Below the pieces are notes generated by a model. That model saw only the letters and a list, made by a program, of their open reading frames with translations. It had not been told where the DNA came from and made no database searches. A program made the translations under genes and the position numbers. A stretch of DNA of 43,251 bases from Klebsormidium nitens (lineage: Eukaryota > Plantae > Klebsormidiophyceae), in NCBI GenBank assembly GCA_000708835.1, contig DF237628.1, positions 2,886-46,136 on the forward strand, read 5' to 3'. Positions 15,458 to 39,800 of this stretch are shown in pieces (the stretch's first letter is position 1; each line of letters begins with the position of its first letter).

Positions 15458-15518
15458 AATGTCGTCGACAAGAACCCAAGTCTGAAATGCAAGTCAAGTG
15501 ATTATAGGCTACCCTGTA

Positions 15519-17008: not shown

Positions 17009-17867
17009 ATGGATACTCTACGAAAGGTCTTAGCTGATGGGATTAGGACCGAAAGTTCCACAGAGCAGTATCTCAAAGGGATTCAGCTTCTATGGAATAT
17101 GGTTTTCGAGGATAAAATGCCCGAGGACCCCTCGTGGATAAAGAGCAAGGCTCAGAGTATCGTTGCAGCCGTTCTAGAGCGCTATGATAATCCTGGAAGC
17201 AGGCGTACTCGTTTAGCCCCTTTTCTTGCTCTTTGTCGCAGACTCGGTTATGCGGAGGCTTACCAAACCTACTATGAGCCGTTTCGGAAGGAAAACAAGG
17301 CTCTTGTCTGAAGGAGTCCGCTCAACGAAAGATTGAGACTAAGACCTCGGATGCCACATCGGAGATGACCGTTGAAGAGGTCGAAACACTTGGAAAGAAG
17401 CTTGCACGCAAGGTTAGACAGTTGAGTCTCGAGGACATGAATCGAGATCTCACTCCTAAGGAGGTGAAGATCTGCATGTGGCATCTCGTCCTCGAATGGC
17501 ATATGCTCTTGAGTAAGGAGCATCGTCGTCGGTTTAAATTGCACGAGCTTCCAATCCTGCGGAAGGGCCAACAGATCGGGGGTGCGAACTATTTGCTGCA
17601 GACCTCACGACGCAAGGGAGATTACAAACTCGTCTTCGAAGCCGGGGATCGAATCCCTCTTACAAAGATGCTAAGCAAGTATCTTCATCGAACCCTTCGA
17701 TTGATACCTCGAGATTCCTTCTTGACTTCGATCACTCAGCCGCAGACGGCTATGTCCGCTAGTAACTGGTCCATGTTCATGAGTAAGATCCAGTACAATG
17801 GAAAGCGCTTCATTCCAGATCGACTCTAATACGTTCGTATCTTACAAAAAATATCTGTGAAGATTAG
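17009..17867 (+). pseudogene. Frameshifted, truncated paralog of the adjacent tyrosine recombinase
   Basis: ORFs 17009-17311 and 17365-17829 join through a frameshift (KENKAL / LKESAQRKIE). Similarities to the intact YR: RTLRLIPRDSFL vs RSFNLIPRKYL, SNWSMFMSKI vs SNFTVVLNDL, and a frameshifted LIRSYLT vs LLRHISH. It ends before the catalytic GH...Y segment. Confidence 0.68.
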
Positions 17868-17891
17868 TAACAACGAGGCGGTTTCACGGCG

Positions 17892-18935: not shown

Positions 18936-19027
18936 AATGTGGGCCAACTATGCAGATTGTTCGCGTTTTCTGAGAATGAATTTTTCTGTGCTACAATCAT
19001 CAGGGAAGTTTCAATTGCGTCCCGGCT

Positions 19028-19273
19028 ATGGAATCATCGAATCACAAACACGAATCGACTGCGTGTGCTGCTTGTTTAGAGGCGAGCCTCTATAAGGATG
19101 AACATCAGGCTAAGAAACGAGTGTATTCCAAAAGCTACTATCAGGTGCACAAAGACGAGATTCTCTTGAAAAAAGCTCTTGAGAGGATTGCAAAAGGATG
19201 TAAGACGAGAAGACGTACGAGAGAGGGGCTGAACGAGACACATATTGCAACCCCTTGGATCCGATCGTACTAA
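19028..19273 (+). CDS. Small basic hypothetical protein (81 aa)
   Basis: Intronless ATG-to-stop ORF packed between the YR and primase genes on the same strand. The KRVYSKSYYQVHKDEIL pattern resembles small viral proteins. Confidence 0.45.
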   Translation: MESSNHKHESTACAACLEASLYKDEHQAKKRVYSKSYYQVHKDEILLKKALERIAKGCKTRRRTREGLNETHIATPWIRSY

Positions 19274-19384
19274 CGAACGAGGCTTCACAAGATCCCGAAC
19301 AAGCGCCGCGTTCTTTTTCGACAAAAATTTTCTGGGGTTGAAACTTATAGGGGGCTCTTGACCCTTCTTCGGTCTTTGAAAAAC

Positions 19385-21390
19385 ATGACAACGGGTTCGA
19401 TTGCCAGTGTGTTGGAAGCATATGCACAAGAAGGGTTGTACGCTGTCCCCGCAAACGTGAGAGCAAAGGACGGATTGAAGCACATTATAACGATGCCTCA
19501 TACAAGAGGCGATGACGCTATAAGATCGGCCTCTGATTGGAGAGCGGCGGGAGGCCGGATTACGCAATTCATTGAAAAAGAACGATACAACTTTCTGGCT
19601 GTCAAGACGGGGGCCATTTCGGACATCTTCGTGCTCGATATTGATGTACGAGACAAACCGGAGAAAGATCTTCTAGCTGGCATGCCACTCTGGAACGAAC
19701 CGATTGCTGAGCACGGAGAGCCAGACACCTTGAAGGCCGTTTCTGCTAGCGGAGGCTTTCACTACTATTTTTCATATGGTTGTTCCATTAGAGATGGGCT
19801 TCAATCAGGAAAATGTTTTGCTGGAATTGATTACAAGGAGCATTACTTTGGCATAGACGCACGTGGAGATGGGGGCATCGTTCTGGCTCCACCGGGCTCA
19901 CCTGGAATCGGGTTGAGTTATACATGGTGTTCGAAACCCATAAGAAGCAGCATCAGAAGCGCTCCATCATGGCTAATCAAATTTCTCAATGATTCAACCG
20001 GGAGGTCTTTCAAGAGGAGTCTCGCGTCGGCCTGCAACAAGATCCAAGAGCAAGCAGTGGACGGCTCCGAGCTCGAGCAAACAAGGGGGCTCGAATCGAG
20101 CACCGTTGAAGAAGATATGCAAGTAGAGGTGGATATCAATGTCCCCCACAATACACAATCACTTGAGCACGAGAAGATTGCTGACGCTATGTTGAATCTA
20201 CTACAAGACGCTGGGCTCGCCACGAATGTTCGATTTTCTGGCAATGTGACCTTCCGTGGTCCGTACGGTATGCTCTATTCATTCATCTGTGACGGTCCCA
20301 GAACATGCATCCATGGCCATCATCATAACGGTAGCAACAATCTGACTCTTGTGAAGCGAGGGTGGAAGATCTTCTACCGTTGCTTTGGCAACGATTGCAC
20401 AGACAAGCCTCTCACGGAGCTTGGAAATATTCCAATATCGATCTCATTGTTGGATGCCAATCCAGTACGCTTGCACCCCACTCATGATTGGAGTACCTTT
20501 CCAAATAATATAAAAACGTTGTCAAACGATGCTGTGGAAGCACAGATGACACTCATTAGGCGGAACATGACGCAACGCTACCGCGGACTAGCGGCAATCT
20601 TCTCAGCTATATGTCTCGTTGACGGACGCGTCATCGCCGAGGGGAAGTCCTTTCAATACTGGAACGGTCGTCGGTGGATCATCGACAACGCGTTCCATAT
20701 ACAAGCCGTGTTTAGTAACCACATGGCTCGTATTATACACTGGTATTCGAACCAGAGACTGAATGCTTTCAAGCGAGAGATTTGTGCACATATAAGAGGC
20801 TCTGCAACACGGCATAATGCTTCGTCGACGATAGAATCAGCCCTTCCAGACTGGGCATTTGATCCAACTACCGATGAAGAAAGAAAAGCATGCAGTACCG
20901 CATGGAGGGTAGTCAACAAAACGTATCCTTTCCCAGCAAAAAGCGATCTGGTGGATCTAACACGGGGATCTGAGATCCGTGTGTGCCTCGAATTCGTCAT
21001 GAATTCCTTGCAAGCTCCTCAATCTCTGAGCGAGCTGATAAAAATTGCCAATCCGTTATTGTTCGCCTGCGCTAACGGTGTCATAGACACCCAAACGGGA
21101 AAGTTGCTCGCCTTTCATCCTGCTCATCTGTGTTCACGTGCGTCGAAAGCGACTTTCCGCGGAATGCCAAAGGCCGGAAGCCGATTTGAGAGGTTTTTGC
21201 TTGATTGTTTCAACGATGACAAAGAAGTTCTCGAATGGTATCAGCTCTTCTGCGGCTATTGCATGACCGCGGACATGAGCGAGCAGATTTTTCTTGTCAA
21301 ACAAGGCGCCGGATCTAATGGCAAGTCGTTGACAAAACTGGCAAGTCTCGAAGTTCTTGGGAGCTACGCTGTTGTTATGTCCGACGATTG
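19385..21390 (+). pseudogene. 5' part of a bifunctional Prim-Pol + D5-like SF3 primase-helicase, interrupted by the KDZ transposon
   Basis: Prim-Pol motifs AVKTG, FVLDIDV, SGGFHYYF and IDARGDGGIVLAPP. D5_N motifs FQYWNGRRW and FACANGVIDTQTG. Walker A GAGSNGKS. The frame breaks right after GACGATTG. Confidence 0.9.
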
Positions 21391-21540
21391 GAGTACACAT
21401 TAATGGCGGGCGTGAATACCAAAAAGGTGTCTTTCTGAAGTCATTCTGGAGGCATTCACGTGAACTTCTTTTACTCCCTGAATGAAAGGGTGCGCAGGCA
21501 GCTATACTCACCTGCCATCCTCTTCGACCATTCCCATGCC

Positions 21541-22730
21541 TTCAAACATTCAGGATTCAGATACGGTCTGAATCCGCCATGAATGAATGCATGTAAGTGC
21601 GCTCGANNNNNNNNNNNNNNNNNNNNNNNNNNNNNNNNNNNNNNNNNNNNNNNNNNNNNNNNNNNNNNNNNNNNNNNNNNNNNNNNNNNNNNNNNNNNNN
21701 NNNNNNNNNNNNNNNNNNNNNNNNNNNNNNNNNNNNNNNNNNNNNNNNNNNNNNNNNNNNNNNNNNNNNNNNNNNNNNNNNNNNNNNNNNNNNNNNNNNN
21801 NNNNNNNNNNNNNNNNNNNNNNNNNNNNNNNNNNNNNNNNNNNNNNNNNNNNNNNNNNNNNNNNNNNNNNNNNNNNNNNNNNNNNNNNNNNNNNNNNNNN
21901 NNNNNNNNNNNNNNNNNNNNNNNNNNNNNNNNNNNNNNNNNNNNNNNNNNNNNNNNNNNNNNNNNNNNNNNNNNNNNNNNNNNNNNNNNNNNNNNNNNNN
22001 NNNNNNNNNNNNNNNNNNNNNNNNNNNNNNNNNNNNNNNNNNNNNNNNNNNNNNNNNNNNNNNNNNNNNNNNNNNNNNNNNNNNNNNNNNNNNNNNNNNN
22101 NNNNNNNNNNNNNNNNNNNNNNNNNNNNNNNNNNNNNNNNNNNNNNNNNNNNNNNNNNNNNNNNNNNNNNNNNNNNNNNNNNNNNNNNNNNNNNNNNNNN
22201 NNNNNNNNNNNNNNNNNNNNNNNNNNNNNNNNNNNNNNNNNNNNNNNNNNNNNNNNNNNNNNNNNNNNNNNNNNNNNNNNNNNNNNNNNNNNNNNNNNNN
22301 NNNNNNNNNNNNNNNNNCTCGAACCACATAAGTGCCCAGTGTCCCAGCTCGTATGCTTTCAAACATTCAGGATTCAGGTACGGCCTGAATCCGCCATGAA
22401 TGAACGCATGTAAGTACGCTCGCTGCACACTTGAAGTGCCCAGAGTTCAACTCATGCGCCTTCAAACATTCAGGATTCAGGTACGGTCTGAATCCGCCAT
22501 GAATGAACGCATGTAAGCGGGCTCGAACCACACAAGTGCCCAGTGTCCCAGCTCATGCGCCTTCAAACATTCAGGATTCAGGTACGGCCTGAATGCGGCG
22601 TGAATGAATGAATGAGTCCAAGTGCGCTCGCTGCACACAAGTGCCCCGAGTCCCGGGTCGCATGCCTTCAAACATTCAGGATTCAGGTACGGTCTGAATC
22701 CGGCATGAATGAATGCATCTGAGAGTTGCT
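21541..22730 (+). repeat. Left subterminal tandem array (unit about 103 bp) with GGATTCAG-N7-CTGAATCC palindromes
   Basis: TTCAAACATTCAGGATTCAG recurs at 21541, 22358, 22461, 22562 and 22667. The array spans the N gap. Confidence 0.9.
21607..22317. other. Assembly gap (711 N)
   Basis: Run of N flanked on both sides by the same tandem repeat unit. Confidence 1.
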
Positions 22731-24468
22731 TCAGGTCAAAGCATTGCACAGGTGCCAGACTTCTGTTTCGTACGAATTAAACACTCGAGATTCAAGTACG
22801 GTCTGAATGTAACATGAAGGAATGAAGACAGTCCGGCAGCACACAGGTGGCCAACTCCCCGCTCGTACACCCTGCTCCCGGTTTCCTAAACTTTCAAACT
22901 TTGAAATTTCATGTACGTACTAAAGGCGGCTGGCCTAAACTTGTGATACACCCTAGCTCGTAGGACTCAAGAGCGCGGCTCCCAACTCGTCACAGACCTT
23001 CAATAATATTAGGAGTTAGGTGCGGCCTGATTGCGGCTAAATAGATAGGGCGAACGGAATCTTCAGAGCAAGCCCACGGCCAGCTTTATGTGGGCCCACC
23101 TCACTGCGCCCAAGTCCCCAAGTGGCAGGACGGTTTCCTTTGGGCAGGCCCGCGATTAACAACATGTAGCAGTTGCCCTCGCTGTGCCGCCTTCCCAGGC
23201 AGAGGCCGTTTGAAACCCCCTGACAGGCCCGCGATCAGGCAAAACAGGGCTGCCATTCCTGCACCGCCCCCCAGAATTGTTGCTGAAGGGATCCCTCCGG
23301 ACAAGCCCCCGGTCGTCGGCATGTGAGGGCTGCTTCCGCTGCGCCACTCCAATAGATTGGTGGGCGAAGGGATCCCCCCGACGGGCCAGCGGAAGAAAAC
23401 GTGGGGGCTGATCTTCTGCGCCGCCCCCCTGGAACTGTGGGCATTTGGACCCCTCCGCACAGACCCGCAGACAGAAACCCTGGGCTGCCCTCGCTGCGCA
23501 CCCCAGCTTGATTGCCAGGCAAAGGGATCCCCCCGGGCAGGGCCGTGGTTGCGGTCTGCTCTCGTTGCTGGAACGCAGTATGGAAAGACTACCGTGCGCC
23601 TCTGAAGTGGCAGGACCCTCACAGCCCTCCTTTCGCAAGCCCCTACGGTGTGGTGGCCTCCCCATCGCGGCTGTCTCCACCGCCTGAAGCGCCTGCATCT
23701 GCAGCGCCAACAGCGCTTTGGTGGGCCCCTGCTGCAGGCTGGCTACCAGGCGACCGGCGCCCCAGCAGCGCCTGTGCGGCGCGGGCGTCAACTCACCAGC
23801 CCCGTGCAGATGGTGGGGAATTCCGGAGCGCACGCGCCACGACCACTGGCAGCAGGAGAGGGGTTGCGCGTGCAGGGCTGAGCACAAAGCACATCACGCG
23901 GAGCACGAAGGGGGAAACCAGGATGTGGCCGCCACCGTACTGCGCAACAGCCCAGGATGTGTACTCCAGCCCAGCCCCCTCGAAATCTCCAAAACCGCTG
24001 AAACTGCATTGCCGTAGTAGAAGGCAGCGAGCAAGACGCCGTTGGTGGCCTGATCCTGGCGCTGCTTGATGGCGGCCGTGGTCAAGGCCATCAAAAAGGC
24101 TAAGCGCTCCAGGTAAGCCACCAGGGTGAAAGCGAACCTACACAGGCTACAGTTGGATGTGCTGGCCAGCAGAGACCACTTTTGCGGTGCACACTCCACA
24201 GCCATCGATCAACCTGCATCGTCGACTCGCAAATTCAACAAACCAGGATGGATTTGACACTGTCCCAAAAGCCGGCATCAAAAGTTGTGCCGTCGGTCGG
24301 TCAGTTTCAACCAGTGCCAGGTCGACCGGCAAACCTCCCGGCGAGCAGTGTCAATTAATCTGATTAACAATTAGGTAATTGATGACCTGCTCCCAGATCT
24401 GAGCGATGAAGCTGTAGCCCTAGGAGAAGCTCAAGGTTGGATGTTGGAAGCAAAGCAAAGTAGACGCC

Positions 24469-27400
24469 ATGGCGTCTGGTCAAGGCAAGCAGCAAGGGGG
24501 GACCCTGCCGTGGCAGAAGAATAAGGATAAGGACAGGGGCAACAGGCCACTGTTCACAGGCGGGCAGAGTGCTGAAAACCAACGGGTGTCTGCCGGAGTT
24601 CCATCCATTAGCTCTCATCAAAGACCTCGGTCCTCGGTGTTTCCTCCAAACTCAAGCATAAAAGATACACAGCAGACTGAGGTACCCCAGGACATGGGTC
24701 TAGGAAAGGAAGCAACAATGCTGTCTCTAGTGATGGAACCCCTCAACATGGCCGAGTTTCTCACACTGCTTGCAGCCCTAGACCTCTACCCGCAGCCATT
24801 CCCAGAGCGTAGCAACTACATTGCTGACATAATCAACAACGAGAGGGCAGCCCTGTCTGCTAAGGTCACGTCAATCGAAGTAAGCTCTATCATTGAGAAG
24901 ATCAGGCTGCATGATGCAGCTCCAGAACATGCAGGGAACACAATCCGGCACCACTTCCCTGCTGCTTTCACTGCTAAGAGCCTGAATCTGCTGCATGTGG
25001 TTATGCCCAGCGTCACCAAGTGCTTCAGCTGTGCTGACGAGCCAGATCTAGCATGGGTGGCACGGCCAATAAGCCCTTTGTTCTTTCCATACGAAGGAGA
25101 ACCAAGGCAAGGCAAAGTGTTTCGGAAGTTCTGTCCCAAATGTGGCGCAGTATATCATCTGAATTTCTTCTGCCCACAAGGCTTGAGTGGGCCCGCTGTG
25201 CCGTATCCTAAAGAGCAAGACTGTGAGCAGTGGTTCCAGCAGTCGCGAGAAACCGTGATCTCGAGGAAACTTCTTGAGGCCCACGACTACAACCTGTGAG
25301 CCCACCAGCCCTTCAGTCCCCTTCTCGTGTTGATACAGTTTGCAAAAAGGCTGCAGAATCTTCTGTCTCTTATTTCCAGGTGTGGCGACCACCGCTCGTC
25401 AGATCCATTGTTTCTCATGCACATTTGCAACGGTCATCAATTCGATTGGTTCTGCTACCAATGATCTAGCCAGTGCTCTTTCTTTCCAAGAGCACAACAG
25501 CGCACTCACTCATTTCCCACATCCGTCCAGGTACTGAAATCAGGCAAGCTTTCTCGGAGCTGTCCGCACACACAACTCAACTGAACAGCTTCAGCGCCAC
25601 TCTGGCTACGCCCATCTAGCTCATACGCCGCTCGTCGCTCGAAGGTCAATTCGTGGAGAGCTGAATCGCGATCGGTTTGAAGAAGCCTACCTGCGTCATT
25701 GGGCGATCAGATTTGCGCAACAGATTGGTCTTAAGTTGCTGAATCAACTTGATCTTAGAAAGTCTACCAACGATCTGATTGCCCAGGTCAAAGACAACGC
25801 TTGGGAGCACCTTAGGCGTGAGGCGCACGAGCACGCGCAGGCAGGCTGCTCTAACCCAATGTGCTCGCGATACATACACGTAGACGGACAGGCTAAGTGT
25901 GTCCGAGCTGTGTGTGCCGAGAAATCTGTAGAGCAATTCACGACGGCAATAGGGAGGGTTGTCAAGGGCTGCACGCATACGCCCCTCCCCCGCAAAAAGT
26001 TTTGCAAGCTCCACATGCCGCAGGCATCACAAGCAGAGGCAGCGTCAGAAGCAGTAGGCGAAGAGGCAGAAGAAGAGTTAGGATTAGTAGAGCCAGATGA
26101 AGAAGAGCCCGAAACTGAATGCTCAAAAACTGACGTGTACGAAGACATCAGCGGTGATCTCGACGAAGAGGTGGTCTTCATCTCTGAATCTAGATCCAGA
26201 CCCCCTGAGCTAGAGAACCCTCAATCAAAAAAGCAGAAACAAGTTGAAGTGCAGGACCCAATAGCTCGGATTGCAGATGCACCTTGGTCACTCCGCACAA
26301 GGCGGGGGCAGGCACGTGTTGAGGACGAGAATGTGTACAACGTGGAGCGCGTCATCAAGAGCAGGATCAGGAATGGGGTAAGAAGGCCAGATCAGAAATA
26401 GGGATGCCAACTTTGTAAACCTCTTGCGAATCAAGTGCTCTCGCAACCAAAGCAGTCAGTACCTTTTTTGCTTCTGCCTAGGTACCCTGCCTCTTTTCCT
26501 CTTATGCCTCTGATTCTCTTCATCGCCCGCAATCTGTTTGAGATTCTTTGAGGGACCCCCTCATACCCCTCTTTACGCATTTTCCCTCATGGTTTATCCG
26601 CAGAAGGAAGAGTTCTGGACGAAATGGGAAGGGGAAAGTGTGTGCACATGGGAGACGGAAGAAAACCTCACTTGCTTTGGGTCTGAGTGTGTAGAAGACT
26701 ACAGAAGAGCTCAGCTTCCAGGTGCGTGGCTGTGTGCTGAATCTGACTGTTGCTGAGCGCTTCATCTTCAAAACTTATACCCTGTGCAACAGACTTGGCT
26801 CAGGCATATGCGCTAGAACCCGGCATCTTGCATCTTCATGAGAAAGAGCAGTGAGCATCAGACTGTCGAGAGCAAAGGAAAGCTGCTTTCTGAAAACTCT
26901 TCTCTCCCCACTACAGGAAACTTCTACGAAGCAGACCGCACGGATCTGCAGCCAGATGATGCAGAGCAGGGAGATGACAAGACGCAAAGAGTCAAGGCCC
27001 AGTCCTGCTCCCCGCGCACGTATGCTGAGCTTGGGAAAGGACGCACTGCAGGCTCTCTTTGGGCTTTCCGTGCGTGCGGGTACAGCTTCCCGCCAAACGA
27101 AACTGTCCTTTGTGAATCATCTACACAGGTGAGCCATACTTGCCCATTCGCTCCGGTGCTGTAGTTGCTATGCTTACATCAGCTGTGTGAAGACTTGTCA
27201 TATCGACCTTCACACTTCCACCGTCTCGCACTGTCTTCCAGCATCGTAACAGCAAGCAATTGAAAGTAGATCAACAATGGGTCATCAGTTCAATGCAATG
27301 TCCTTTCTGGCGCCACCTGACATCAAGAAGCCTCATTGCAGGTTTGGCACTACCTCTGTGAGCTCTTCCGCGATACCGACTTCCCCGAGTTCGTTGGCTT

Positions 27401-28056
27401 TGATGACATGTGTCATCTTGCGCGGTTCATACTCTCCGGGGAGAGGACCGCTGTTTGCCCCAAAGCGGCGGAGTTCGCAAGGGTCAAAGCAGTGGGTAAG
27501 TAGCACCCTAGGAGCAGTGCAACTCTGATTCGGCAAATGCTCAATACGCTAGGATCCCAACAGTGCATCGCTTGCATGGGCATCGCTTGTAGAGGAACAT
27601 AGGCTGTTCGAAAACCCTAACAGCAGGAGGCATTCCATGTTGCAGTCGACAAATTCCACTTCGACAAGAACCACGTGGGGAAGTGGTGCAAGGAGCACGT
27701 GAACCCGCACCACCATCCAGAGCTCACGAAAGCAAACATGAGCATCTGTGAGCAGCGTTTCAGCTGGTTCGGGAAGTACAAGCACATACTCAGGTAAGAG
27801 TCTGCGAAGCGAGCGCAGAGAGTCATTGACAGAATTAAGGACACGTCTGTGATCAGCACAGCTACTTCTGTCCTGAAGCACCTTGTCTTGAAGTACAGAG
27901 GAAATGCACGACCAACTGCAACCTCCTAGAACCTTCTTATGCAGGAAGATGAACGAGCACCGGTTCCACTTCCTGCTCCTGATTCTGTGCCAGATTGACC
28001 ACATCCAGCGGGACCGCGACCTAGCGCTGCGACGTGCAGCAATCTTATCAGCTTAG
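24469..28056 (+). CDS. Multi-exon KDZ transposase with CxC clusters and an inserted chromodomain
   Basis: CxC5-like KCFSC...FCPKCGAVYHLNFF; HVDGQAKCVRAVC (first Asp); CTHTP...FCKLH; chromodomain YNVERVIKSRIRNG|KEEFWTKWEGESVCTWETEENL; RTAG...ACG...ESSTQV; VGFDDMCHL (second Asp); VDKFHFDKNH...WC; NMSICEQRFSWF (Glu); final exon KMNEHRFHFLL to the stop at 28056. GT-AG junctions are consistent where checked. Confidence 0.9.
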
Positions 28057-28117
28057 ATAACTTCTATATCAGGCGAGGACTCAGAAACTCCGTGCTTCTC
28101 AGGAACCAGCTTCTTCG

Positions 28118-30604
28118 TTGGCGTTGAAAGGAGCACCCCTGCAAGCAGTCAATCTGAAGCTGAGTCAGAAATCTCAAAGTGCAGCAACAGCTAAGAATCC
28201 TTGCCAGATTGCCTTCTCAAAGAATTCTTCATGTCCTTGCAGATCAGCAGCACCAAGGATTCAACAGAATTGCTTTTGCAACAACGGCTTAGAAGGTGAG
28301 CTCACACTTCATTCCTCATGTGGTCCACCCTGCTCGGTAGGTAGTCTTGGAAGGTAAGCTGGTTGCAGCCGGTTGCAAAGAGTCAGGTACTCGGACGGGC
28401 AGCTGGGGATGATCTTGCGGAAGAGGTCGTTTGGACGAACCATGCCCGGAAGGGTGCCAGCCTCTGTAGACCCGAAGAAGTGTGTGTCGTCGTCATCGTG
28501 AGAAGAAAGGTGATCCCAGAGGCGGATGATGTCCTGCTTCTTGCCAAACGTCTTCTTGCTCACGACCGCAGTGATGTTGATGACCTCGTCCTTGAAGGTC
28601 TGGAAGAAGCGCTTGATGCAGAGCTGCTCTTCGCTCTGCAGAAGATTCGAAATAGGCAATCAGCGAGTTTGCAGATTTGAGTTTGCCTCAGATGCTTCAG
28701 TACATTTGTGGAATTCTTGCTAAAGGTTTTCCCCTGTTCTCGCAGATAAGTGACTTACCAAGACATCCCCTGAATTGAGCCGCCCTCGCCTGGACCCGTC
28801 GTCGTCCCCACTGTCCTCATCCAGGTCAGGAAGTTCCCACTCCCAGAACTCATTGCAGAATCGGATCATGCTCTCGTCACCCTCGAACAGAACACGCTGC
28901 TTCAGCACCAGCTGCGAAATCTTGATTGCACAGTCCATGGCCTCGCTGCTGATTTCAAGCATCTCGTCTCTAGGGTCGAGCGAGTCGCCGGTTTCTGGAT
29001 TCTCAGCCTCCTTGAGCATGACGACAAGGATGTGCAGAGCAGCTGCGATCTGGAGAGCTTCTCCTTTCACTTTACCGAAGACTCCTGCACGTTAAACATA
29101 AGCAGCAGGGTCAAGAAAACCACCGTTAACCTCAGGATATGAACCCCTCGTTTCTTCTGATCTGACCCCTTACTTAGCGATCAAGATTCTGCGCTGCTTT
29201 TGTCTTGGTCCTTACCTGCTTTCGAGAACATGGAGTTGCTCGCTAACTCCGCGAGAAAGTCCTGGACTTTGTCGAAGAAGCTGGCGTGCATCTTGTAGGC
29301 TTCACCACGCACCACAAAGGCGCGTTTCAGAGCTGCTCCGGTATCAATGTTGTGCGCAAAGTCAAATATGAAGAGGAATACCTGGAGAGACCACATGACA
29401 ATGCCTTTGTTTGACCTGCACTTTATCTTTGTTTCAAATCAAAAGCAAACACGAAGTTCCAGGTCATTAGATTCGTCAACAGTCATGCGTGTCGAAGTAA
29501 ATTCGTACCTTCATGAGCAAGTCATCGAAGTCGGTGATGGTCTTTCTCCAATCGTCGCCGCTGATTTTGAGTTTGTCTGCAGGATAACCATATGAATACG
29601 TCAACTTCAAGCTCCTCCAATATTGCGTTGCACTTTTGGACATCTCAATCAAGATACTTCCTGCTCGATGGACAGGCAGTCTTTCGAAAACAAAGAGCGA
29701 GGTGAGAAACGTCTTACCTAAGTGCTCAAACACGCCAGGAATGAACGTGATCAAGAACCGGTTTAGCAAACCGTCCTTCGGAGTCTTGAAGAGCTCGACA
29801 CTGAGCGGCTGAGGCTGCATGTAGCCCGAAGGGATGAAGTGCGTAAAAGGAATGCTTGAATTTGGTCGGCCAACAGTCTCCCTGTCCCATGACGAACCCC
29901 CCTTCAGTGAGAGTATCTGCGTTCGGTCTCCTTCTCCCTTCTTGTAACCGTCCATCCAGGCGAAGAAGTAGCCGAATTCCTCAAGAAACATCATTCGGGC
30001 ATGGTTGACGTCATGTTTCAGCTCCTGGAATAACGCCTCCAGAGTCGCCTGTAAACGAGTTACAATATTTCAGAGAATTGCGTGGGACATTTTCCTGATG
30101 CGAGATGATCAATTCTAGAATTGGCAACCAGTGGAGTTGCAACGAAGGACAGCAATAAATGATCGGACAGAAATGGCTGGAACTCACACTTTTAGCAAAG
30201 AAACTGAATGGTTTGATTTCTTCGTCCTCGTCCTTGTCCTCAAGAGCTTTCGTTTTGATCCTCTCGTTGATCTTCGTTTCGACTGCAGTAGCAATCTGCT
30301 TCAGCTTCTTGAACGCAGGAGTCTTTCCGATGGCGCTGTACGCTACAATGATACACCACAGGAGCAGGCGCTCCTCCCATTCGTGTCCCTCAACTTCGAC
30401 AGTGGCATGCGGACCAAGCAAAAGACAGGTGAGGCTCAAGATTGGCAAGAACAGATGCCAGGATGACAGACTCGCACGGCGGCAGAAAGACTCGCACAGC
30501 GCATAGAGTTTCTCAGGCACACACTCCTTCAGCGCCTCTTCTGTTGCAACGGAACTTGCTTGTCGCATCGCCTTATCAACCGCGGCGTCCGAGGTCCTCG
30601 CCAT
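28118..30604 (-). CDS. Multi-exon DUF3987 (YfjI-like) P-loop NTPase/helicase
   Basis: LLWCIIVAYSAIGKT (Walker A variant), MFLEEF (Walker B), DRTQILSL.GGSSWDRET, GYMQP and DGLLNRFL match the DUF3987 signature. The 3' end is approximate. Confidence 0.75.
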
Positions 30605-30960
30605 GTTGCAAGCCACAAAGAAGCCGTTCAAAACAGTGAAAGCGATTCTCGAAATGACAAAATCTGCAAGTCAGGCTCCCCTTTTGTACCCAGGACTCGG
30701 TTGCCAGTCTTCCTTGGCAGTCTGGCTTTAACAACACTAGTCAGACTGCTTTCGACGAACAGCGTGTTTCGAACCTGGAATTCCATCGAAATCGAATCGG
30801 GAATGAACATCGGCATCGACATCGAATGGCAGGATTCAGCTGAACGCAAAGCTTTGCAAGTCAAGTCTGGTTGGTTGAGGCTTGAAGAATCAAAGTAGGT
30901 TTGATCCGCGTCAATTGTTCTTCGCAGAAGGATTGTAAAACAGCAACAATCTCAGCGCCA

Positions 30961-33900
30961 ATGGCGCAAACAGGCGCTGTGCGCAAATCCTTCTGGATGA
31001 GATTTCCAAGGCAGGCCGCAATGCTCAAAGCATGGGAAAAGTGCGGACACGATAACGCCAAGCCGTTTGCATCACAGGATCACCAAACGGGAACATACAG
31101 CTATATTCTCACCACGTACGACGAGATCTGGGCCAGGGCCCTCGGTCGATACTTCCCGACAGGCACAAGGCACCTGTATGAGCTCATCCACGAGGTAAGA
31201 ATGCTCTAACGAATAGGCTTCTGACACGTGTCTTTCCAATCTTGAAAATACCAGAAACTTACGTTATTTACGTACTTGTGCAGGGCTCCTCTGTTCATCT
31301 GTACATCGACTTCGAGTTCGACCCCACCCTAAATCCCAACCGGAATCCGGATGCTATGGTCGATGCTCTGCTAGAGGTGATCGCCAGGCTACTATACGAC
31401 ACATACGATGCACAGATTGACGAGGGGGGGATCGTCGAGTTAGACGCATCCTGGTCAGGTGAGATGCTAATAACCAAAAGTCTCGTTTTTCTTGTCTTGT
31501 ATGTTCTAAAGCTGCCAGACTATCAGGGTTCGAGGAGTCTCGTGTTTCGTCCTGCTATCGGATCATTTGCTCCCTTCCTTTTAATGCCAGCAGACAGACT
31601 TTTGGAACAAGGACTGTACTCTTGCTTTCTAGTCTGCTCAGGTGCTTTATTAGGGTTCTAAGGGCTGGATGTGTGTTCTTGTACTACACTCAAACATTTT
31701 CTGCATATTCTGCATTCTCTGCACTCTGATCGAATGCTTTCATTCATTTCCTTGCAGTCAGAAGTGAAATTGCATGTCTTCTGAAACGGTCTTGACCATC
31801 AGGGTTCGAAATGGCCATGTCTTTCTGTTTCTTGAATGCCGGCAGACGGTCTCCTGGTACAAAATCTGTACTCTCTCTTTTAAGCGTTTTCGTGCGCACT
31901 ATCAGGGTTCGAGGTGTCGTGTTTGTCATACTCTGCTACACTCACAAATTGAGCGTTCAGTCATTTCTTTGCAGCACAGCAGAGAAGTTACCTGTCTGTT
32001 ACCTTTCGCTTATGTTCTAAAGCTGCCAGAATATCAGGGTTCGAGGGGTCTCGTGTTTCTTCCTACTAACAGATCCTTTGCTCTCCCTTCAATACCAGCA
32101 GACAGACTTCTTCAACAAAGACAGTACTCTCGCTTTCCAATCTGCGCTCGTGCATTATCAGGATTCTAGGGGCTGAATGTGTGTTGCTGTCACTACACTA
32201 ACACAATCTCTACATATTCTGCCTTTTCTGCACTCTGAATGCATTCATACATTTCGTTGCAGTCAAAATTGAACTTGCATGTCCCCTGCTCTTCTTCCAA
32301 AGCTGCCTGACCATCAGGGTTCCAAATGGCCATGTCTTTCTGTTTCTTGAATGCCGGCAGCCGGTCTTCTGGTACAAAATCTGTACTCTCTCTTTTAGGT
32401 ATTTTCTTGCGCACTATCAGGGTTCGAGGGGTTGTGTGTGTGCTGCTGCGCTGCGCCCCACGGATTGAACATTCATTTATTTCCTTGCAGGAAAGATCTC
32501 GAGGCACATTGTGGTACATCTAAAAGACTGCGTGTTTTCCGACAACTCCTATCATCTGAAATGGTTCATGAACAAGAAGGTGAGATCGCCACAATGAAGT
32601 CACATCTCAAGATGTTACTTTCTAAACGGTTTCCTGGACAGATACCGTTGCCTTTTTCTACAGAAAAGCGCAATATCAGGTGAACATATATGCTTGTGTC
32701 ACGTGCTCGCAGGTCGTTGATTACATTCTCAGCAAGCGCGACAGCGACGAGCTGTGCACAATCCTGTTCGTCAACAAACGGAACGGAGACACATCGTACA
32801 CTGGCTTGTGCTTTGACACAGCCGTATACAGCCGCAACCGCCTCTTTCGCCTTGTATACTCGACGAAGCACAATCGGTCTGAACAATTCATTCCGACTCA
32901 CCGACGCAGGCCTTCACAGGTGATCACAGGGCTCGATGCACCCCAAAACTCAAAGATTCTTACATTCACATATCTTCGAGCAAGGCTTGTCCAGATCCTG
33001 GCCGCTTGTACATGCTGACAACCAGCTCACTGTCCTCTCTCTTTCCATACAGGGCCCGATGGAAGATTTTTTCGCCACACTCGTCTGCAATACAAACGAT
33101 GAAGCACGCCAGCTGGAGTGCCCTCGGATGGTAAGCGAAGCATCTGCCGCTTGCAGCACAAATCTTACATCCTCCTTCGCTTCTAGGTTCAATTCTGTCA
33201 GCGTCAACCCCATAAACCGTCCAGTACTTTCTGAATCCCACTCCGGGGGTGTGCGTGCGGTGGTTCGTGAATACATTCACTTGTTAAATTGCAGGCCCTC
33301 CCCTTCCGTTCTCCTAGCTCGAGACCCAACTACCAGCACGAAGATTCAACGGCAACTTACAGGGAGCTCTCAGAGTACGTCAAGGCCGTTGCTTCACAGA
33401 ACGGTCGACAGGGTGAGCATTGATAACGTGACTCATAGATTGACATACAGCCAGTCTCTCAGCTTGCAGCTCTGAATTGAAGAACAATCGGTTTTAGGGT
33501 TTCAGAACTAGAAACCCTAAAACCCTAAATGGAACATTCGGTTGCTCAAGGGTTCTCCGCTTACGAAAACTCGTTAAGATTTGGTGTTGAGATTTCTCTG
33601 CCATTCTGGAGTCCGGACATCAATCTTCCCAACATCAAGCTCATTTCGCTCTGTCTTGATTGCAGCCTGCATACGCGACATGAAAGTGTGAAGATTTCTC
33701 TGCCAATCTGGAGTCCGCACATGATCAATCTTCCGCAACATCAAGCTCATTTCGTTCTGTCTTAACTGCAGCCTTCATACGCGCCATGAAAGTGTACAAC
33801 GGGATCATCTCCTACGAGATTGCCGGCAACCACTATTGCGCCAACATCGGACGTGAACATACCAGGAATAACGGTGAGCCAATTCTCACAAGCCTCTTCT

Positions 33901-34367
33901 CTTAAAAGCCTTCATAGCACACTGTCCTGGGACGCTTTGGCATTCGTGTTGTAAGCAGCATCAAACGCTGTTCCTTAAGAACTTCAGCAACCGATTAGTC
34001 AGACAGCCCCTCTGTTTGCAGTGTACTATGTGGCGGACCTGCGCAGCGAAGAGTGCACCCTAACACAAAAGTGTCACGACTCTTACAGCTGCGACGGTGA
34101 GACAAACCGGCTCATGACTCGATATTTACCAGCAGCAAATCGATGATTCCCGGATCGATCAGCGTCGCTGCAAGCTCTAGAACTCTGAAGTTGTCAAAAG
34201 CGTAAATGCGGAAACGTGCAAGTCCTGCCTGAAGTTCGTTCTTGCTTTCAGGTTACCGGTCACCACCGCTACACATCCCCCACGCCATCGCGAAAGTTAC
34301 AAGAGAGCATCTCCAGAAAGCAAACGACGGTGCGTATGCGGGCCTGCTCTTCGTTTTCGAGGGCTGA
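30961..34367 (+). CDS. PRIMPOL: Multi-exon PRIMPOL-like primase-polymerase carried by the transposon
   Basis: RHLYELIHE|GSSVHLYIDFEF (motif I DxE), KISRH (motif II SxH), FDTAVYSRNRLFRL (motif III) and FFATLVCN. UL52-type Zn finger YCANIGREHTRNN|VYYVADL...QKCHDSYSCD|GYRSPPLHIP. Exons were read across GT-AG junctions. It may not be the host ortholog. Confidence 0.88.
31499..32490. repeat. Tandem duplication (period about 512 bp) inside PRIMPOL intron 2, with nested ATCAGGGTTC repeats
   Basis: TATGTTCTAAAGCTGCCAGA occurs at about 31500 and 32012. GGCCATGTCTTTCTGTTTCTTGAATGCCGGCAG occurs twice. ATCAGGGTTC occurs six times. Confidence 0.85.
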
Positions 34368-34744
34368 CACTGCTATCGTAACCACGCGGGCCTTCAATTG
34401 GCCAGCTTCAGTGAAGCTGCTGATTGTTCTGTCCATGCTTGCTGCCTTACTCATGCAACGTATCCCCTGCAAAAATGTGTCGGATCAGTAAGAAAGCAAT
34501 CTTTCACTGCAGGTCATGACGCTGGCGAAAGCCAGTCAGGCGACGACCAATGGGACTCAGAGTTTTCGAGTCTTGCTGTTGCTCTACTGGACAGGGTGTC
34601 AAAAAGAGTTTCTAGATCAGCCAACAGTCCGCAGCTGCCAAATTTGTTTGCAGCAATGGACGTGTAAGGGAGAGACGCATCTTGTATAGATTTGCTCTCG
34701 TGAGTAGAAAATGGCAAAACATGGTGTCCAGTATTCACAATCGG

Positions 34745-35295
34745 TTCATTCAGGCTTCACGTGAATCCTGAATGAATGAACCCCTAGCTCCACAGAGTAG
34801 GTGGCTCCTGATCTTATCCACGTCGATTTTTGAATAGTGATACGATCATTCAGGTTTGCTTCATTCAGGCTTCACGTGAATCCTGAATGAATGAACCCCT
34901 AGCTCCGCAGAGTAGGTGGCTCCTGATCTTATCCACGTTGATTTTGAATAGTGATACGATCATTCAGGTTCGCTTCATTCAGGCTTCACGTGAATCCTGA
35001 ATGAATGAATCACCGCGTGGGAGTATGACGACAATATTACTAGCCATAGCCGAAAGTGTAGAAACGACCATTCATGTCCCATTCATTCACGATTCATTCA
35101 GGCATCACGTGAATCCCGACTGAATGCCGATTGCATGAATGAATATGCTGTTCATTCACGATTCATTCAGGCATCACGTGAATCCTGAATGCCGATTGCA
35201 TGAAGCAATGAATGACACTGACGTAGAGGTTCAAATTGAAGTGATCCATGTTCAATTCATTCATGAATCGTTCAAAGTTCACCTGAATCCTGAAG
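34745..35295. repeat. Right subterminal palindromic repeats of the KDZ transposon
   Basis: The near-perfect 32-bp palindrome TTCATTCAGGCTTCACGTGAATCCTGAATGAA occurs at 34745, 34860 and 34974 (period about 115 bp), with variant copies from 35090 to 35295. Confidence 0.9.
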
Positions 35296-35354
35296 TGTCA
35301 ATGAACGTTCAGAAACGGAATTCAGAGCAGCCATTAATTAATAGTGGACGATTG

Positions 35355-36186
35355 CATTATCGAGGCGGGAAAAAGATCGGCTGGCTCAGCTTCGAGCCAC
35401 ATCATGGCTCTTCGGGGCGGGCGGCTCGCAGAAACCGATGAATCGGGTGAGAAAGCGGTCTTGAACGAGGCTGCGATGAAAGCTGTATCGGCAAGGGGAA
35501 AAGCCACAGCACGCGAGCTGCAATGCAGACAAGAGACATTCGAGCTTACCGCGAAGCCCGTCCTCAATACCAACTACCGGCCTATTCTTCAGAACGTGTC
35601 CTATTGTGTTACCCGACGCTTGGCACTCCTCCCGATGCTAGTCACTTTTTTACCTCCTCACAAATTCGACCCTGGGAAACCGCGCCAAAAGCTCATTGAC
35701 ACAACACTTGAAACCTATCTGACAAGTGACCAGGGGCGGGACGAAGGTCTTTCTTGGTATACACAGGGGGCGAAACGTTATCATGACCTGAAGCGAGCAA
35801 ATCCAAACACGTTACCACTGATGCGCCGTCCGCGTGTTATGGAGGAAGCTGTCAAAGCATACATCAACGATTCAGACATTGCCACGCGGTTGATCGCTGA
35901 TTGTCTTGAATTCGAAGACATTCAATCCGGAGAAAAAGCAGAATGGCACTTAGCGGTTGGTGAACGGCTTGGAGAAGCCTTTCGAACTTGGTTGAAGGAA
36001 GAAGACCTACACAGCGCGTTGTCGGCAACGCAGCTGAAAAAGCGCATTCTGGAGTATGCTGAGGGGAAAAATCGGATAGTCAAGGACGGGCAATTTACGG
36101 ATAGCCAGGTACAATATCCAGGACAGTTTAAAGGCCTTTCGGGGGTTCGACTAGTGCCTGGCCGCGAGTCCAACGCGTTGGAGTAG
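35355..36186 (+). pseudogene. 3' part of the interrupted D5-like SF3 helicase
   Basis: LRGGRLAETDE (Walker B), ARELQ, PVLNTNYRP (motif C) and TRRLALLP. It is in frame with 19385-21390 after excision, giving a 945-aa product. Confidence 0.9.
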
Positions 36187-36367
36187 ATGAAGGCAACCAT
36201 GATGAGCGCAGGTAATGATGCGCCGAGAGAGATTCTGCAGATTGGTTCTTGTTTTTCCATATTCTATGTGCATAGCCGACATGTCATTATGATGTGAATT
36301 GCTCCAACAATCGTCTGAGATGTCACCAGCTTACATCGCTAGTCGCTCTATATGGCCGTGCCTCTCT

Positions 36368-36729
36368 GCAGACCAACAGTCTAGAAGACCAAAATTCTAA
36401 GAATTTTTTATTTCAGAATCTCTCAGAGGTCATAATTGCTATAATCGAAAAGATACAAATACGCGGTCTTTTAGACTTTTGGTCTGCGGCAGTGCTACCA
36501 AGGTGTACCTCTGCATGCGATGATGATGACTCCGAGATTGTGTTCATGCTTCAGATCCATAAGTAGGAGTAATTCAAAGATGCTTCATAATTGAACATTG
36601 GATGTTGCAGACCAAAAGTCTAGAAGACCAAGATTCTAAAAATATTTTATTTCAGAATCTCTCAGAGGTCATAATTGCTATAATCGAAAAGACATGAATA
36701 CGCGGTCTTCTGGCCTTTTGGTCTGCGGC
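36368..36729. repeat. Two direct copies of a 123-bp hairpin element with 23-bp inverted arms
   Basis: Copies at 36368-36490 and 36607-36729. Arms GCAGACCAAAAGTCTAGAAGACC / GGTCTTCTGGCCTTTTGGTCTGC match at 21/23 in each copy. Confidence 0.85.
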
Positions 36730-36885
36730 CCTAGCTAGGTACGATCATGAGCACAAAACATTCCACTTGGTGTGTGTGCAGCGGCATACGATGTAGAAAG
36801 TGCACGTCAATAGTGGTGAATATATGCAGCATACCTGCAAATTACAATACATTCTGAACTTGACGTCGTTGTTTCACTAGAGGCT

Positions 36886-39800
36886 CTAACACAACAAGAG
36901 ATGTTGCCGTACAGCCGGCCACCACGTGTCCGCTCTGCCCGCAATGCGCAGCTTCGGTTCGTCAACCCGTTTCAGATCGCTATTCCTTCCACTGACGAGG
37001 TTAGCAAGGATGATCATGAGCGCAACGAGGCTCCTGTACCATGCTTGCGTCTTGAAGTTCACGAGAAAGGCGTTGCATGACTCGACCGCAGAGGTGTTGA
37101 CCCATCGCACAGAGTCGTAGTAATCTGCACGTGAATGAACAGAAGAATTGATTGCGACCTCTTGAAAATCCGAGTTGCATCCTTTGTGAATGCCGTGTAA
37201 AATGAACACTTCTGCAAAGATATTTAGAACTTGTCGCCTTCTATAGAGATCATCGGAAGCATTGAACTCGCTTCCTCAGTGCGCGTCGCCGCGTCTGCAG
37301 GAGCCTAAGAAAGATGCCGGCGTGTTCAGACTAGGCCCGTTGATATTCTTACGCATTCAGAACGCAGCGCATGATCAAATGCTCAGTCAAAAGCCGCCTC
37401 CTTCTTCTATGTGAAAGGTGGGGCGATATTGACTGTATTGCTCCAACCCCACCTCCTACACACACTCTGACTTGGCGCCTTCCTCGACTCGGATCGAAGC
37501 ATATGTACCATCATCCTGCAGACGCGTCAGGATCTTACCTGGGTTGTACGACGGGCCACATTTGTGAGCTTCGGAAGTTGTGCGTTGAAAGTGAAATCTG
37601 CATGGATGGCGCATGGATTAGGATCAGGACAAAAAGTGCACAATCGAATGGGATTGCGACCATTGTATGGCACTGGCGTAGGGCTCATAGAAACCTCTTC
37701 GATTGAAGCTGCCACATAGCTTGCAAAAATTTTCGCTTACCTGTCGACGAGAAATCGAACTTCCGCAAAGAACGTTGGCTCTCTCCGCATCACGTAGGCA
37801 CGCAGCTTGCAGGCGTTGTCGTAGACCAGGTACGCGGGGAGATCGTGGCGATTGAGGCGGGTGTATAAGACCGTGAACGGGTCTCGCGGCGACTCCCCAC
37901 GAAGCATCACGTGGAACCCATATATCACGCGATGCGAGCAGCAGAAAACGAACCCGCCCTTGGTGTGCCGTCGGAGACTCCTTGCCTTTTTCACCCCGCT
38001 CTCGAGGGCGATCTTGGCATCGAATTCGCCGACCATTAGCCCGCTCCGGCAACGATGCTCCTCGTTGGGCTGGAGAGACCTCCCGAGGTCGTCCTCGAAC
38101 GGCTCGTATTGCGGGAGGGGCCGTTTTTGCTCCCACCCTGGAAGCGGGTAGCAACCCAACTCTCGTTGCTCCCGACCGTAGGGATGATCCGCGGGCAAGG
38201 GCCCTGGCTCCGACCCGTCTGGCTCGAGACCAAGTCTGTCATTGAGCAACGTCCTCTCTGGCGGGAGCAGAGCGTACTCGTGCGGTGCGGGAGGGGAAAG
38301 GTTTTCGACCCCGGGGAGGAGCGCGTTTGCCCGGGCTGCCCAAAAGTCGAAGGCCTGCTGCTGCTCGACGGTCAGAGGGTTCGGCTCTCGCCCTAGCCAG
38401 ACGCAGACATCGAGGCCTTCGATGGCCGACAACGCCCATCCCGCCCGCCCCACCCCGAGTCCCACGGCTCCACGTCCAAAGAGCGTCAACCGGTAGAGAT
38501 GATGTAGCGTCGGATAGAAGAAGCGAGGGTACCGGTCGCCGTAGTGGTCCAGCAGCCGACGCAGGATTGGAGAGTGCTCTGCTAGCACGACCTTGTCGTC
38601 ATCGTTTGCGGCTCCCCCGAGGAGCAGCTTGCGAATGACACTCAGGGCCTTCCCATGCTGGATGAGATTGGAGTCGTCCGAGACTGAGTGCGGCGCGCCG
38701 AGAGTGTAGACCAGCTCCGCCCATCTGCTGGGGCAGTGCGGAGGCCAGCAAGCCTCCTCTTGCATGGCTTCTCTCTCGATGCCGTCGTGCAGCTCGTGCG
38801 CTGCTTTGTTCTTCGATCGCATCTGGCCGACCTGGTCCGCCCGGACCCAACGGCGCCAGTGCAGGAGGACGGGGTCCGCGTCGGCATCATCCGGGTCCGG
38901 AACGAAGTCTGTGACGCCTTGCACGTCGTCTCTATTGAGCGCGATCTGCACACAAAGACTCCGTGTCAGAGCATCGAACGCCTCAATCGTCGATGTTTTG
39001 TTTACTTGGAATAAAGGATTGACATATTGGTACAGATCGGACAGCTTCTTAGGAACATCAGCAGCGCGAGTCCAGGTCGGAACTCACCAGAAGCTCCTCA
39101 TATTCTCGCGCACTAGGAGTCTTTCCCAGCTCTGGATCGGCAGTGTGGTGGGCGCTATATCGGGCTATAAGCGTGCGGATTTCCGGCTGCTGCACTAAAC
39201 GCGTCTTCAACCCTCCACCGAAAAGAGACGCCGCGCAGTAGTTGCTTCCGGCCTCCATGACCTTCCGCACGTTGCCTCCGTCGGTGCCTTGACTGGGCGC
39301 TGTGAATGGTCGGAGCTGAGCGGCATCCGTTCCAGCCAGACCGCCCTCTGACGCGTGGCGTCAGCGCAAGCGAGCCCCGCGATGCCGTCGCAAAGGAGAA
39401 CCTAGTGTTCACAAAAAAGTGACCACCCTTGTCGATATGATTCACATGGACAACAATCTAGCGCTCTTGCGGCCGTAGAACCCACAAGTCTAGCTGCCTC
39501 CGCATCAGAAGGTCACTGCCTCTATGCCAACGACGTGCCTCCACTCCCATCCCATGCAGAAATCGTTACTACTTCGTCTCATCAGCAGCGGAAGCAGAAA
39601 GTGGAGACAATTTTGTGATTGAAAGTTTCTCAAGTGCCTTCTTTGTTACCGACAGAAGAGCGTGGCAACACATACCTCTGGATGTGGACCGCAAATGCTG
39701 CAGCACTCCATGATCTGCCGTCCGCACAGCTTGTAGAAGCCGAGGCTCGCTTTGCGCCAAGTCTCTTTGGTCAAGAGAGTCGCGTTGGGGTCGTAGAGAC

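Follow-up and report, generated by a model that had tools for sequence, protein, structure and literature searches.

A KDZ-type transposon of Klebsormidium nitens carrying genes for an MCM-like ATPase and a primase-polymerase

The textbook view of eukaryotic DDE transposons is one of cut-and-paste elements whose gains in copy number depend on host repair. AcademH is known beside KolobokH as a helicase-bearing eukaryotic DDE transposon. In the lineages KolobokH and Kolobok-1_CCri, a RecQ helicase is a fixed accessory of the element (PMC9587614). The Kyakuja-Dileera-Zisupton (KDZ) DNA transposons described by Kojima (2025; PMC12730594) combine a DDE transposase bearing Cys clusters with accessory genes inside the ends, such as TET/JBP; that text uses the word 'helicase' once, for Helitrons, and 'primase' not at all. 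Here we describe a KDZ-type element in a 43,251-nucleotide stretch of Klebsormidium nitens (Klebsormidiophyceae; assembly GCA_000708835.1, contig DF237628.1, positions 2,886 to 46,136), hereafter the window. Its accessory genes are not TET/JBP but an ATPase of the DUF3987 family, predicted to be an MCM-like ring helicase, and a PRIMPOL primase-polymerase. The RecQ-carrying Kolobok lineages, in which the helicase is likewise a fixed accessory, are the nearest described eukaryotic case, although RecQ is a monomeric superfamily 2 (SF2) enzyme, whereas the window element pairs an AAA+ ATPase of MCM-like ring type with a primase-polymerase. On balance, and with moderate confidence, we read the locus as one now-interrupted copy of a KDZ transposon whose helicase and PRIMPOL would unwind the element and prime synthesis at transposition, leaving the bulk of copying to host polymerases.

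Other described systems share parts of this arrangement. The bacterial Insertion-sequence Excision Enhancer (IEE) unites an archaeo-eukaryotic primase (AEP) PrimPol and a helicase that work with DDE transposases, in copy-out synthesis or donor-site repair, and indicates that such a pair can act at the DNA-synthesis step; IEE, however, is a single fusion protein whose helicase is of SF2 type, and its gene lies outside the insertion sequences whose loss it promotes (bioRxiv 10.1101/2023.06.07.543989), whereas the window holds two separate genes inside a eukaryotic transposon. Phage and plasmid proteins (Atlas clusters; PHROG 2373, 'DNA helicase') couple a DUF3987 ATPase to a primase, a partnership that the initial annotation had invoked; 4 of 7 Atlas structure rows show phage DUF3987 fused with a Prim-Pol, PriCT or NrS-1-type domain. 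In the phage and plasmid proteins the primase is a prokaryotic Prim-Pol domain fused to the ATPase, whereas the window element encodes an independent eukaryotic PRIMPOL rich in introns; the pairing thus looks as if it had been re-made and not inherited. Polintons/Mavericks, casposons and Teratorn place an integrase and replication genes within terminal repeats, but a family B polymerase is among their genes, as are virion genes in Polintons and Teratorn; neither was found in the window element (PMC6431247, for part of this comparison). The initial annotation knew of no KDZ element with a primase-helicase module, and the literature searched (Iyer et al. 2014, Repbase and the Kojima supplementary sequences lay outside its scope) likewise contained none with a DUF3987 or PRIMPOL gene; nothing in it joined Zisupton with a helicase and a primase, or PrimPol with Klebsormidium, and DUF3987 combined with transposons led to bacterial or phage work only.

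The unit bounded by a target-site duplication (TSD) that had been annotated at 24469-34367 exists, but it is larger: an 8-bp TSD, GACGATTG, encloses 13,956 bp at 21391-35346 (Table 1). The two ends align without gaps as imperfect terminal inverted repeats (TIRs), matching at 18 of 27 and 20 of 30 positions, and inside each lies an array of a 27-bp part-palindromic motif, the two arrays inverted relative to each other. A scan of the whole window returned 15 matches to this motif at 10 sites, all within the two arrays, compared with none in 100 shuffles, and the arrays are likely to be transposase-binding sites. In runs X1 and X4, which come from a single sample that may have supplied the window DNA (X1 was used as the source run), contigs join 21381 to 35353 with seven letters between and no change of length. 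This joint has the length expected of a single TSD copy, so another copy of the target gene is present in the genome without the insertion. A contig from the metagenome run X6 begins to match the window at 21391, with other flanking letters before it, and an X5 contig stops matching at 35348, again followed by other flanking letters. In X1 the ends reach approximately 15-21 times single-copy depth and the interior single-copy depth, showing that the ends are mobile; the interior remains single-copy in X1 at 80% identity, short exon matches excepted, and the run data contain many short copies of the ends with other interiors.

Parts of the window left uncovered by X6 were not counted as absence, and X5 was not counted as independent support. 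Of its 1576 changes, 1326 are C>T or G>A and 112 are A>G or T>C, a spectrum that looks like chemical conversion or one-way mutation. Over 18500-38000 these changes make up 84% of those in X5; if they do reflect chemical conversion, the good cover of the element would point to dense cytosine methylation. The single-copy, G+C-rich stretch at 22714-24400 gave no Pfam match for its 13 open reading frames (ORFs) at E<=1 and no Rfam match; it contains three AAGGGATCCC-type motifs, and X5 is almost without cover at 23057-23707, though both sides are covered.

Within the KDZ superfamily, duplications of 7 or 8 bp are found, and the empty site supports one of 8 bp here. Fungal Kyakuja have 7-bp duplications and CA..TG ends, and lack TIRs (PMC12730594), whereas the window element has TG at its right end and GA at its left, and imperfect TIRs; 8 bp is the simplest reading of its duplication, as the foreign-flank match in X6 starts from 21391 and not from 21390. 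The combination of an 8-bp duplication with TIRs is that described for Zisupton and Dileera (PMC12730594). The element works like a KDZ transposon and has, at its ends, the Zisupton/Dileera pattern of TSD and TIRs. It is not a Helitron, which would have an HUH Rep nuclease and no TSD in place of a DDE transposase and an 8-bp TSD. Nor is it a casposon or a Polinton, which are self-synthesising transposons: no family B DNA polymerase appears between its ends as an ORF or Pfam match, and the 711-N gap is too short for one.

The transposase gene encodes a CxC5-like cluster, a second Cys cluster and a chromodomain, with D, D-x-x-C, D-x-x-H and E motifs and predicted catalytic residues D394, D689-690 and E755, features that by sequence point to a KDZ-type DDE transposase with a Cys cluster. 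Profile matches are weak exon by exon: CxC5 on exon 1 reaches E 0.022, below the Pfam cut-off, and no single exon matches Pfam KDZ. However, in a two-sequence phmmer test the product matches the transposase of an unrelated metagenome contig, L001, at E 2.7e-15. Iyer and colleagues are said to have taken CxC5/CxC6 as a mark of Kyakuja. Zisupton and Dileera carry SWIM, SAP or SUMO-protease domains; no Pfam match to any of these was found on the transposase exons scanned, where short exons lose matches. The chromodomain is inserted in the transposase and split over 26325-26377 and 26604-26721 (Pfam Chromo E 2e-4).

The initial annotation considered this transposase intact, which the 7-exon model contradicts, as codon 278 is an in-frame TGA. 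Given that the codon aligns without gaps to Phe in the L001 transposase, we take the stop to be a nonsense mutation; splicing around it in phase would be possible, but at a cost of 18 residues of the aligned stretch. This copy of the element is probably dead or nearly so. The lineage itself was under purifying selection: two X6 contigs from a relative of the transposase show 42 differences, 29 of them listed, with 21 at third codon positions, and 20 of the 29 listed are synonymous. From these listed differences, dN/dS is approximately 0.12 (p 1e-6). In X6, over 24498-32965, identity to the window is 98-99% for pieces of the ATPase, spacer and PRIMPOL and 84-93% for all four longer transposase pieces, a contrast that could reflect exchange of transposase and helicase-primase modules among copies. 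Of the RNA-labelled runs, X7 and X10 gave no contig, and X8 a single spliced contig that uses donor 26377 and acceptor 26916/7.

The DUF3987 gene of the initial annotation is borne out. Its spliced six-exon model equals P0001 (KFL_006790050, Klebsormidium nitens) letter for letter and scores 72.3 bits with Pfam DUF3987, compared with a cut-off of 27. For the AlphaFold model (pLDDT 82), MCM proteins fill the first 11 places among structural matches (best Z 17.4; root-mean-square deviation 4.2 over 274 residues) and Foldseek agrees, whereas D5/SF3 helicases score Z of approximately 6-7 and TnsC and MuB 5.4-6.0. Walker A K94, Walker B E163, Q217, R236 and K332 are each the commonest residue of their column; the sensor and arginine-finger residues are named after the alignment to MCM. 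Judged on this model, the product is predicted to be an MCM-like ring helicase.

A search of 1.84 billion representatives with the ATPase gave 238 with E<=0.001, and protein searches with a DUF3987 exon and with P0001 returned P0001 only. In a tree of 45 rows (17 eukaryote-like and 28 others, drawn from the best 150 matches plus L001), the algal, ribbon-worm and L001 ATPases fall on one side of a branch with support 90/95, and the same branch has support 99 in a quick 97-row tree; for P0002 and most such rows, the label 'eukaryote-like' is our own assignment. The clade is multicopy in the ribbon worm Tubulanus polymorphus (P0059, P0154, P0155). Chara braunii has a member, P0018, whose model is fused to a piece of ribosomal L22, probably through an annotation join. 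The nearest Atlas cluster is 94% eukaryotic, mostly rotifers. Viral contigs scanned with P0001 and alignments A1 and A2 gave nothing, scans of viral contigs with the end motif and with a transposase exon found no locus, and A1 gave nothing against metagenome contigs.

Also as first annotated, the ATPase gene lies divergent from a PRIMPOL across 356 bp between start codons, a spacer that is likely to be a shared promoter, and the PRIMPOL has three AEP motifs and a zinc finger. Its frame is open in either 9 or 10 exons and encodes DxE (DFE, 87-89), SxH (SRH, 140-142) and hD (FD, 200-201) motifs and a C-H-C-C zinc finger (323-358), a pattern that marks it as a predicted eukaryotic PRIMPOL with AEP motifs I-III and a UL52-type finger. 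Exon 2 matches human PrimPol 5L2X at E 0.028 and exon 7 matches Herpes_UL52 at E 0.095; a protein search with exon 4 gave no match. Without the last intron the protein would have 397 amino acids and end at 34367, although, on splice-signal prediction only, it probably continues through a tenth exon. That exon adds an acidic tail with a D-x-x-F motif, which resembles the RPA-binding motif of human PrimPol (D519/F522; PMC5457501) and hints, weakly, that the tail may dock on host RPA. Intron 2 (31500-32490) is a tandem duplication at 81% identity, composed of approximately four 255-bp units, and in intron 6 a duplicate of the exon-7 acceptor region (33584-33795) has 88% identity. Short TTTTAGGG/CCCTAAAA repeats near 33490-33530 in intron 6 resemble what we take to be a telomere repeat.

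The element's PRIMPOL falls in an OrthoFinder group with At5g52800, the Arabidopsis PrimPol (PMC8523556), and the orthogroup contains four Klebsormidium genes, compared with one in each of six other species, two in spruce and none in two (PMC6374488 lists). The host orthologue is kfl00085_0050, which has At5g52800 as its best match (PMC4052687 supplement file 12) and lies among conserved genes; the PRIMPOL of the element is consequently an extra paralogue. X1 contains no second copy at 80% nucleotide identity, so it is not a recent duplicate. The frame has stayed open while the tandem copies in intron 2 fell to 81% identity; in neutral simulations it was still open in 2-5% of cases at 8-10% change and in 14% at 5%. 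The open frame thus shows selection on the PRIMPOL lineage, not whether that selection acted inside the element.

Do the three genes travel together elsewhere? The initial annotation had proposed testing whether other copies retain all three. The transposase-ATPase pair does recur; in the gene lists, no PRIMPOL-family gene lies beside the two paralogues that show it in Klebsormidium. On L001, a CxC5/KDZ transposase (CxC5 37.5 bits, above cut-off; KDZ E 5e-5) is encoded head-to-head with a DUF3987 gene of the same clade; the tblastn match (E 3e-10) was lost at a stricter cut-off and confirmed by blastp and phmmer. L001 is the one locus with a visible neighbour among seven metagenome loci found with the eukaryote-like ATPase alignment; no PRIMPOL was seen at any of the seven, whose flanks are too short to exclude one. 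For Klebsormidium, linkage was read from published gene lists (PMC6374488 supplement files 5, 8, 13) as gene rank, not DNA. There the orthogroup of kfl00679_0040, which we equate with the window transposase, has eight genes, and two of the three other named DUF3987 paralogues adjoin one of them: KFL_000580370 (0058_0360/0370) and KFL_001880190 (0188_0185/0190). The third is not beside such a gene. One of the two other extra PRIMPOL copies, kfl00182_0030, lies two ranks from a transposase-orthogroup gene, in a series (0010, transposase orthogroup; 0020, unassigned; 0030, PRIMPOL) with the same order as 0679_0040/0050/0060. Assuming 16,000 genes, or a pool of 1,500-3,000 transposon-rich genes, the chance of the ATPase-transposase neighbourhoods is 2e-6 to 3e-4, and that of the PRIMPOL-transposase neighbourhood 0.003, or 0.02-0.04 within the transposon-rich pool. 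On scaffold 58, a silent porphobilinogen deaminase model, kfl00058_0355, is flanked by the conserved gene 0350 and by 0360, which belongs to the transposase family; the layout looks as though a host gene had been duplicated or split by a sister element.

Under the reading we favor, the transposase would bind the end arrays and join the ends to a staggered 8-bp target. The form of the ends itself implies that a DDE transposase integrates the element at a staggered cut of 8 bp. The helicase would then load at a nicked or cut end and unwind the element, PRIMPOL would lay primers, perhaps docked on host RPA through its tail, and host polymerases would extend them and do the bulk copying. The donor copy would be kept or rebuilt, by copy-out or gap refill, and copy number would rise. 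DNA synthesis on the element itself would be the most economical role for a ring helicase and a repriming enzyme in a transposon. The MCM-like ring helicase is likely to be a built-in partner of the transposase, and PRIMPOL likely a later gain in one algal sub-lineage; the former looks like an old, fixed partner and the latter like an optional one, because sister elements appear to move with the helicase alone. The initial annotation had gone further and suggested self-replication. Helicase and primase genes are indeed present, but the region between the ends showed neither a processive polymerase nor a gene for a single-strand-binding protein or a capsid, so full self-replication is unlikely; the interrupted transposase and the two transposase-helicase loci without a PRIMPOL-family neighbour point the same way.

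Several observations weigh against our reading. Besides the in-frame stop and the missing polymerase, the X8 contig skips exon 3, part of the chromodomain, and leaves the frame, and such skipping could keep transposase low. The listed element genes have 0 transcripts per million (TPM) in all 36 of 36 samples, although kfl00679_0050/0060 and the host PRIMPOL are not among the genes listed; the Hori 2014 table has no gene of scaffold 679 at all, so its gaps are uninformative. The gene pair is head-to-head on L001 and tail-to-tail in the window element, and, at 1.2-2.5 kb, the other six of the seven metagenome loci do not extend far enough to reveal neighbours. The identity of kfl00679_0040 with the window transposase is drawn from rank, as is the support from scaffold 182, where the middle gene, kfl00182_0020, is unassigned. 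In the gene lists, the scaffold of the extra PRIMPOL kfl01441_0020 is devoid of transposase-orthogroup genes, and the transposase-ATPase loci on scaffolds 58 and 188 have no PRIMPOL-family neighbour; the two PRIMPOL-bearing copies can also be explained by one capture, inherited passively. Finally, the many short copies of the ends around other interiors would equally be left behind by standard cut-and-paste families.

Some of these points lead to an alternative that is possible, if doubtful: that the ATPase is a true second gene serving target choice or transpososome remodelling, as MuB and TnsC do, and that PRIMPOL is host-lineage cargo, captured once and of little role. With the window locus as the third, two of the three loci with transposase and ATPase lack a PRIMPOL-family gene; the PRIMPOL is of ordinary eukaryotic type, down to its orthogroup and possible RPA-binding tail, and KDZ elements are known to swap accessory genes such as TET/JBP (PMC12730594). 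Against such cargo, the predicted ATPase fold is MCM-like (Z 15-17) and not TnsC- or MuB-like (Z 5-6), and DUF3987 is a primase partner in phages. The PRIMPOL frame has stayed open despite old intron duplications, the gene differs by >20% from any other copy present in X1, and it shares its short divergent spacer with the ATPase. The initial annotation had itself allowed that both genes might be host genes captured here alone under relaxed selection, an account at odds with DUF3987 clade members adjoining KDZ transposases elsewhere and with a PRIMPOL that is not the host orthologue.

Helicase and primase are the minimal set of many plasmids and phage satellites. The element might accordingly be a true replicon, excised as a circle or linear molecule and amplified extrachromosomally through the helicase and primase that it encodes, the transposase serving integration only; we consider this improbable. 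That minimal set, the DUF3987-primase fusions, palindromic end arrays that could serve as origins, and the location inside another primase-helicase element would all suit a replicon, whereas X1 shows the interior as single-copy, the primase is missing from sister loci, and plant PrimPol is described as low-fidelity (PMC8523556). In addition, no right-end-to-left-end joint occurs among the joints listed in run contigs, 15 further joints lying outside that listing.

It is very improbable that the locus is not one unit but a non-autonomous element with an 8-bp TSD and nested or captured pieces, its neighbourhoods elsewhere being chance in transposon-rich regions: the ends are multicopy and the interior is not, fungal Kyakuja make 7-bp duplications without TIRs (PMC12730594), X6 identity differs between the transposase and the other two genes, and 1.7 kb of unexplained DNA separates the left array from the transposase, but inner 6-9-bp duplications or TIRs stay at chance level (seven 9-mers compared with approximately six expected), the genes are packed (the transposase and ATPase stop codons are 252 bp apart, and 78 bp separate the right array from the last PRIMPOL exon), and the transposase-ATPase pair recurs on DNA at L001 and by rank at two loci (chance <3e-4). 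The 9-mer pair at 23238/34713 was tried as an inner duplication and rejected as chance-level.

The transposon sits inside, and splits, a Prim-Pol/D5 primase-helicase ORF of a multicopy virus-like element, which spans 11260-21390 and 35355 to approximately 37000; X1 depth over 18.5-21.1 kb is 6-16 times single-copy. This target element also has an AEP-like ORF at 11260-12594 (weak match to the PRIMPOL model, E 1.6e-6), a herpes origin-binding-type helicase at 13104-15457 (Pfam E 3e-21), and two ORFs at 17278-18935 without a Pfam or PHROG match, whose ends resemble what we take to be tyrosine recombinases. A 65-bp unit bearing inverted arms, ACACCTTG...CAAGGTGT, recurs in approximately 16 scattered copies over 4742-13239, and one of these falls in the gap that separates the AEP-like ORF from the helicase ORF. 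Another KDZ gene, different in type, occupies 37737-41697 on the minus strand (SWIM-like Cys/His motif by eye; Pfam KDZ E 0.014); it was considered as the mover of the ends and rejected, there being no end motif near it. At 961-2518, also on the minus strand, lie exons that encode a P-loop NTPase (Pfam nSTAND3 E 1e-5) whose N-terminal part is a coiled coil.

Table 1. Features of the transposon and its insertion site, in window coordinates
Feature	Position	Strand	Remarks
Target gene, 5' part	19274-21390	+	Prim-Pol/D5 primase-helicase ORF of multicopy virus-like element; outside transposon
Left TSD, GACGATTG	21383-21390	+	8 bp; direct 8-mer match and empty site
Whole element	21391-35346	.	13,956 bp, including ~711-N assembly gap (21607-22317)
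Left imperfect TIR	21391-21420	+	Gapless comparison with right end
Left subterminal array	21547-22707	+	27-bp part-palindromic motif; 5 sites visible; N gap interrupts array
G+C-rich (59%) single-copy stretch	22714-24400	.	No assigned role; between left array and transposase
KDZ transposase gene	24469-28056	+	7 exons, 805 codons; spliced model, GT-AG exons
Transposase exons	24469-25295, 25531-26377, 26604-26721, 26917-27128, 27342-27495, 27646-27793, 27945-28056
In-frame TGA	25535-25537	+	Transposase codon 278; 7-exon model
DUF3987 MCM-like AAA+ ATPase gene	28309-30604	-	6 exons, 544 amino acids, intact; spliced model
ATPase exons	30188-30604, 29718-30048, 29509-29576, 29216-29381, 28759-29084, 28309-28635
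Divergent spacer	30605-30960	.	356 bp between ATPase and PRIMPOL start codons
PRIMPOL gene	30961-34667	+	10 predicted exons, 436 amino acids, no stop; GT-AG splice model
PRIMPOL exons	30961-31194, 31284-31458, 32491-32579, 32713-32919, 33053-33130, 33295-33412, 33772-33873, 34022-34096, 34252-34329, 34513-34667
Right subterminal array	34747-35191	-	Same 27-bp motif, inverted relative to left; 5 sites; sixth, weaker, ~35255-35305
Right imperfect TIR	35317-35346	-	Gapless comparison with left end
Right TSD, GACGATTG	35347-35354	+	Direct 8-mer match
Target gene, 3' part	35355-36186	+	Phage primase profiles of left part continue here; outside transposon

More broadly, and only tentatively, since we think the generalization unlikely as it stands, there may be eukaryotic DDE transposons with a replication-start kit of their own: an MCM-like ring helicase common to algal and animal KDZ elements, joined in Klebsormidium by a recruited PRIMPOL, giving self-priming copy-out and amplification of the element without a family B polymerase. 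An MCM-like helicase kept from algae to animals, with a primase added, suggests that some DDE transposons start DNA synthesis themselves, and the three-protein system offers a direct test ground for copy-out versus cut-and-paste. Eukaryotic DUF3987 proteins would thereby gain a first role, and the element would exemplify the recruitment of a host repriming enzyme by a transposon.

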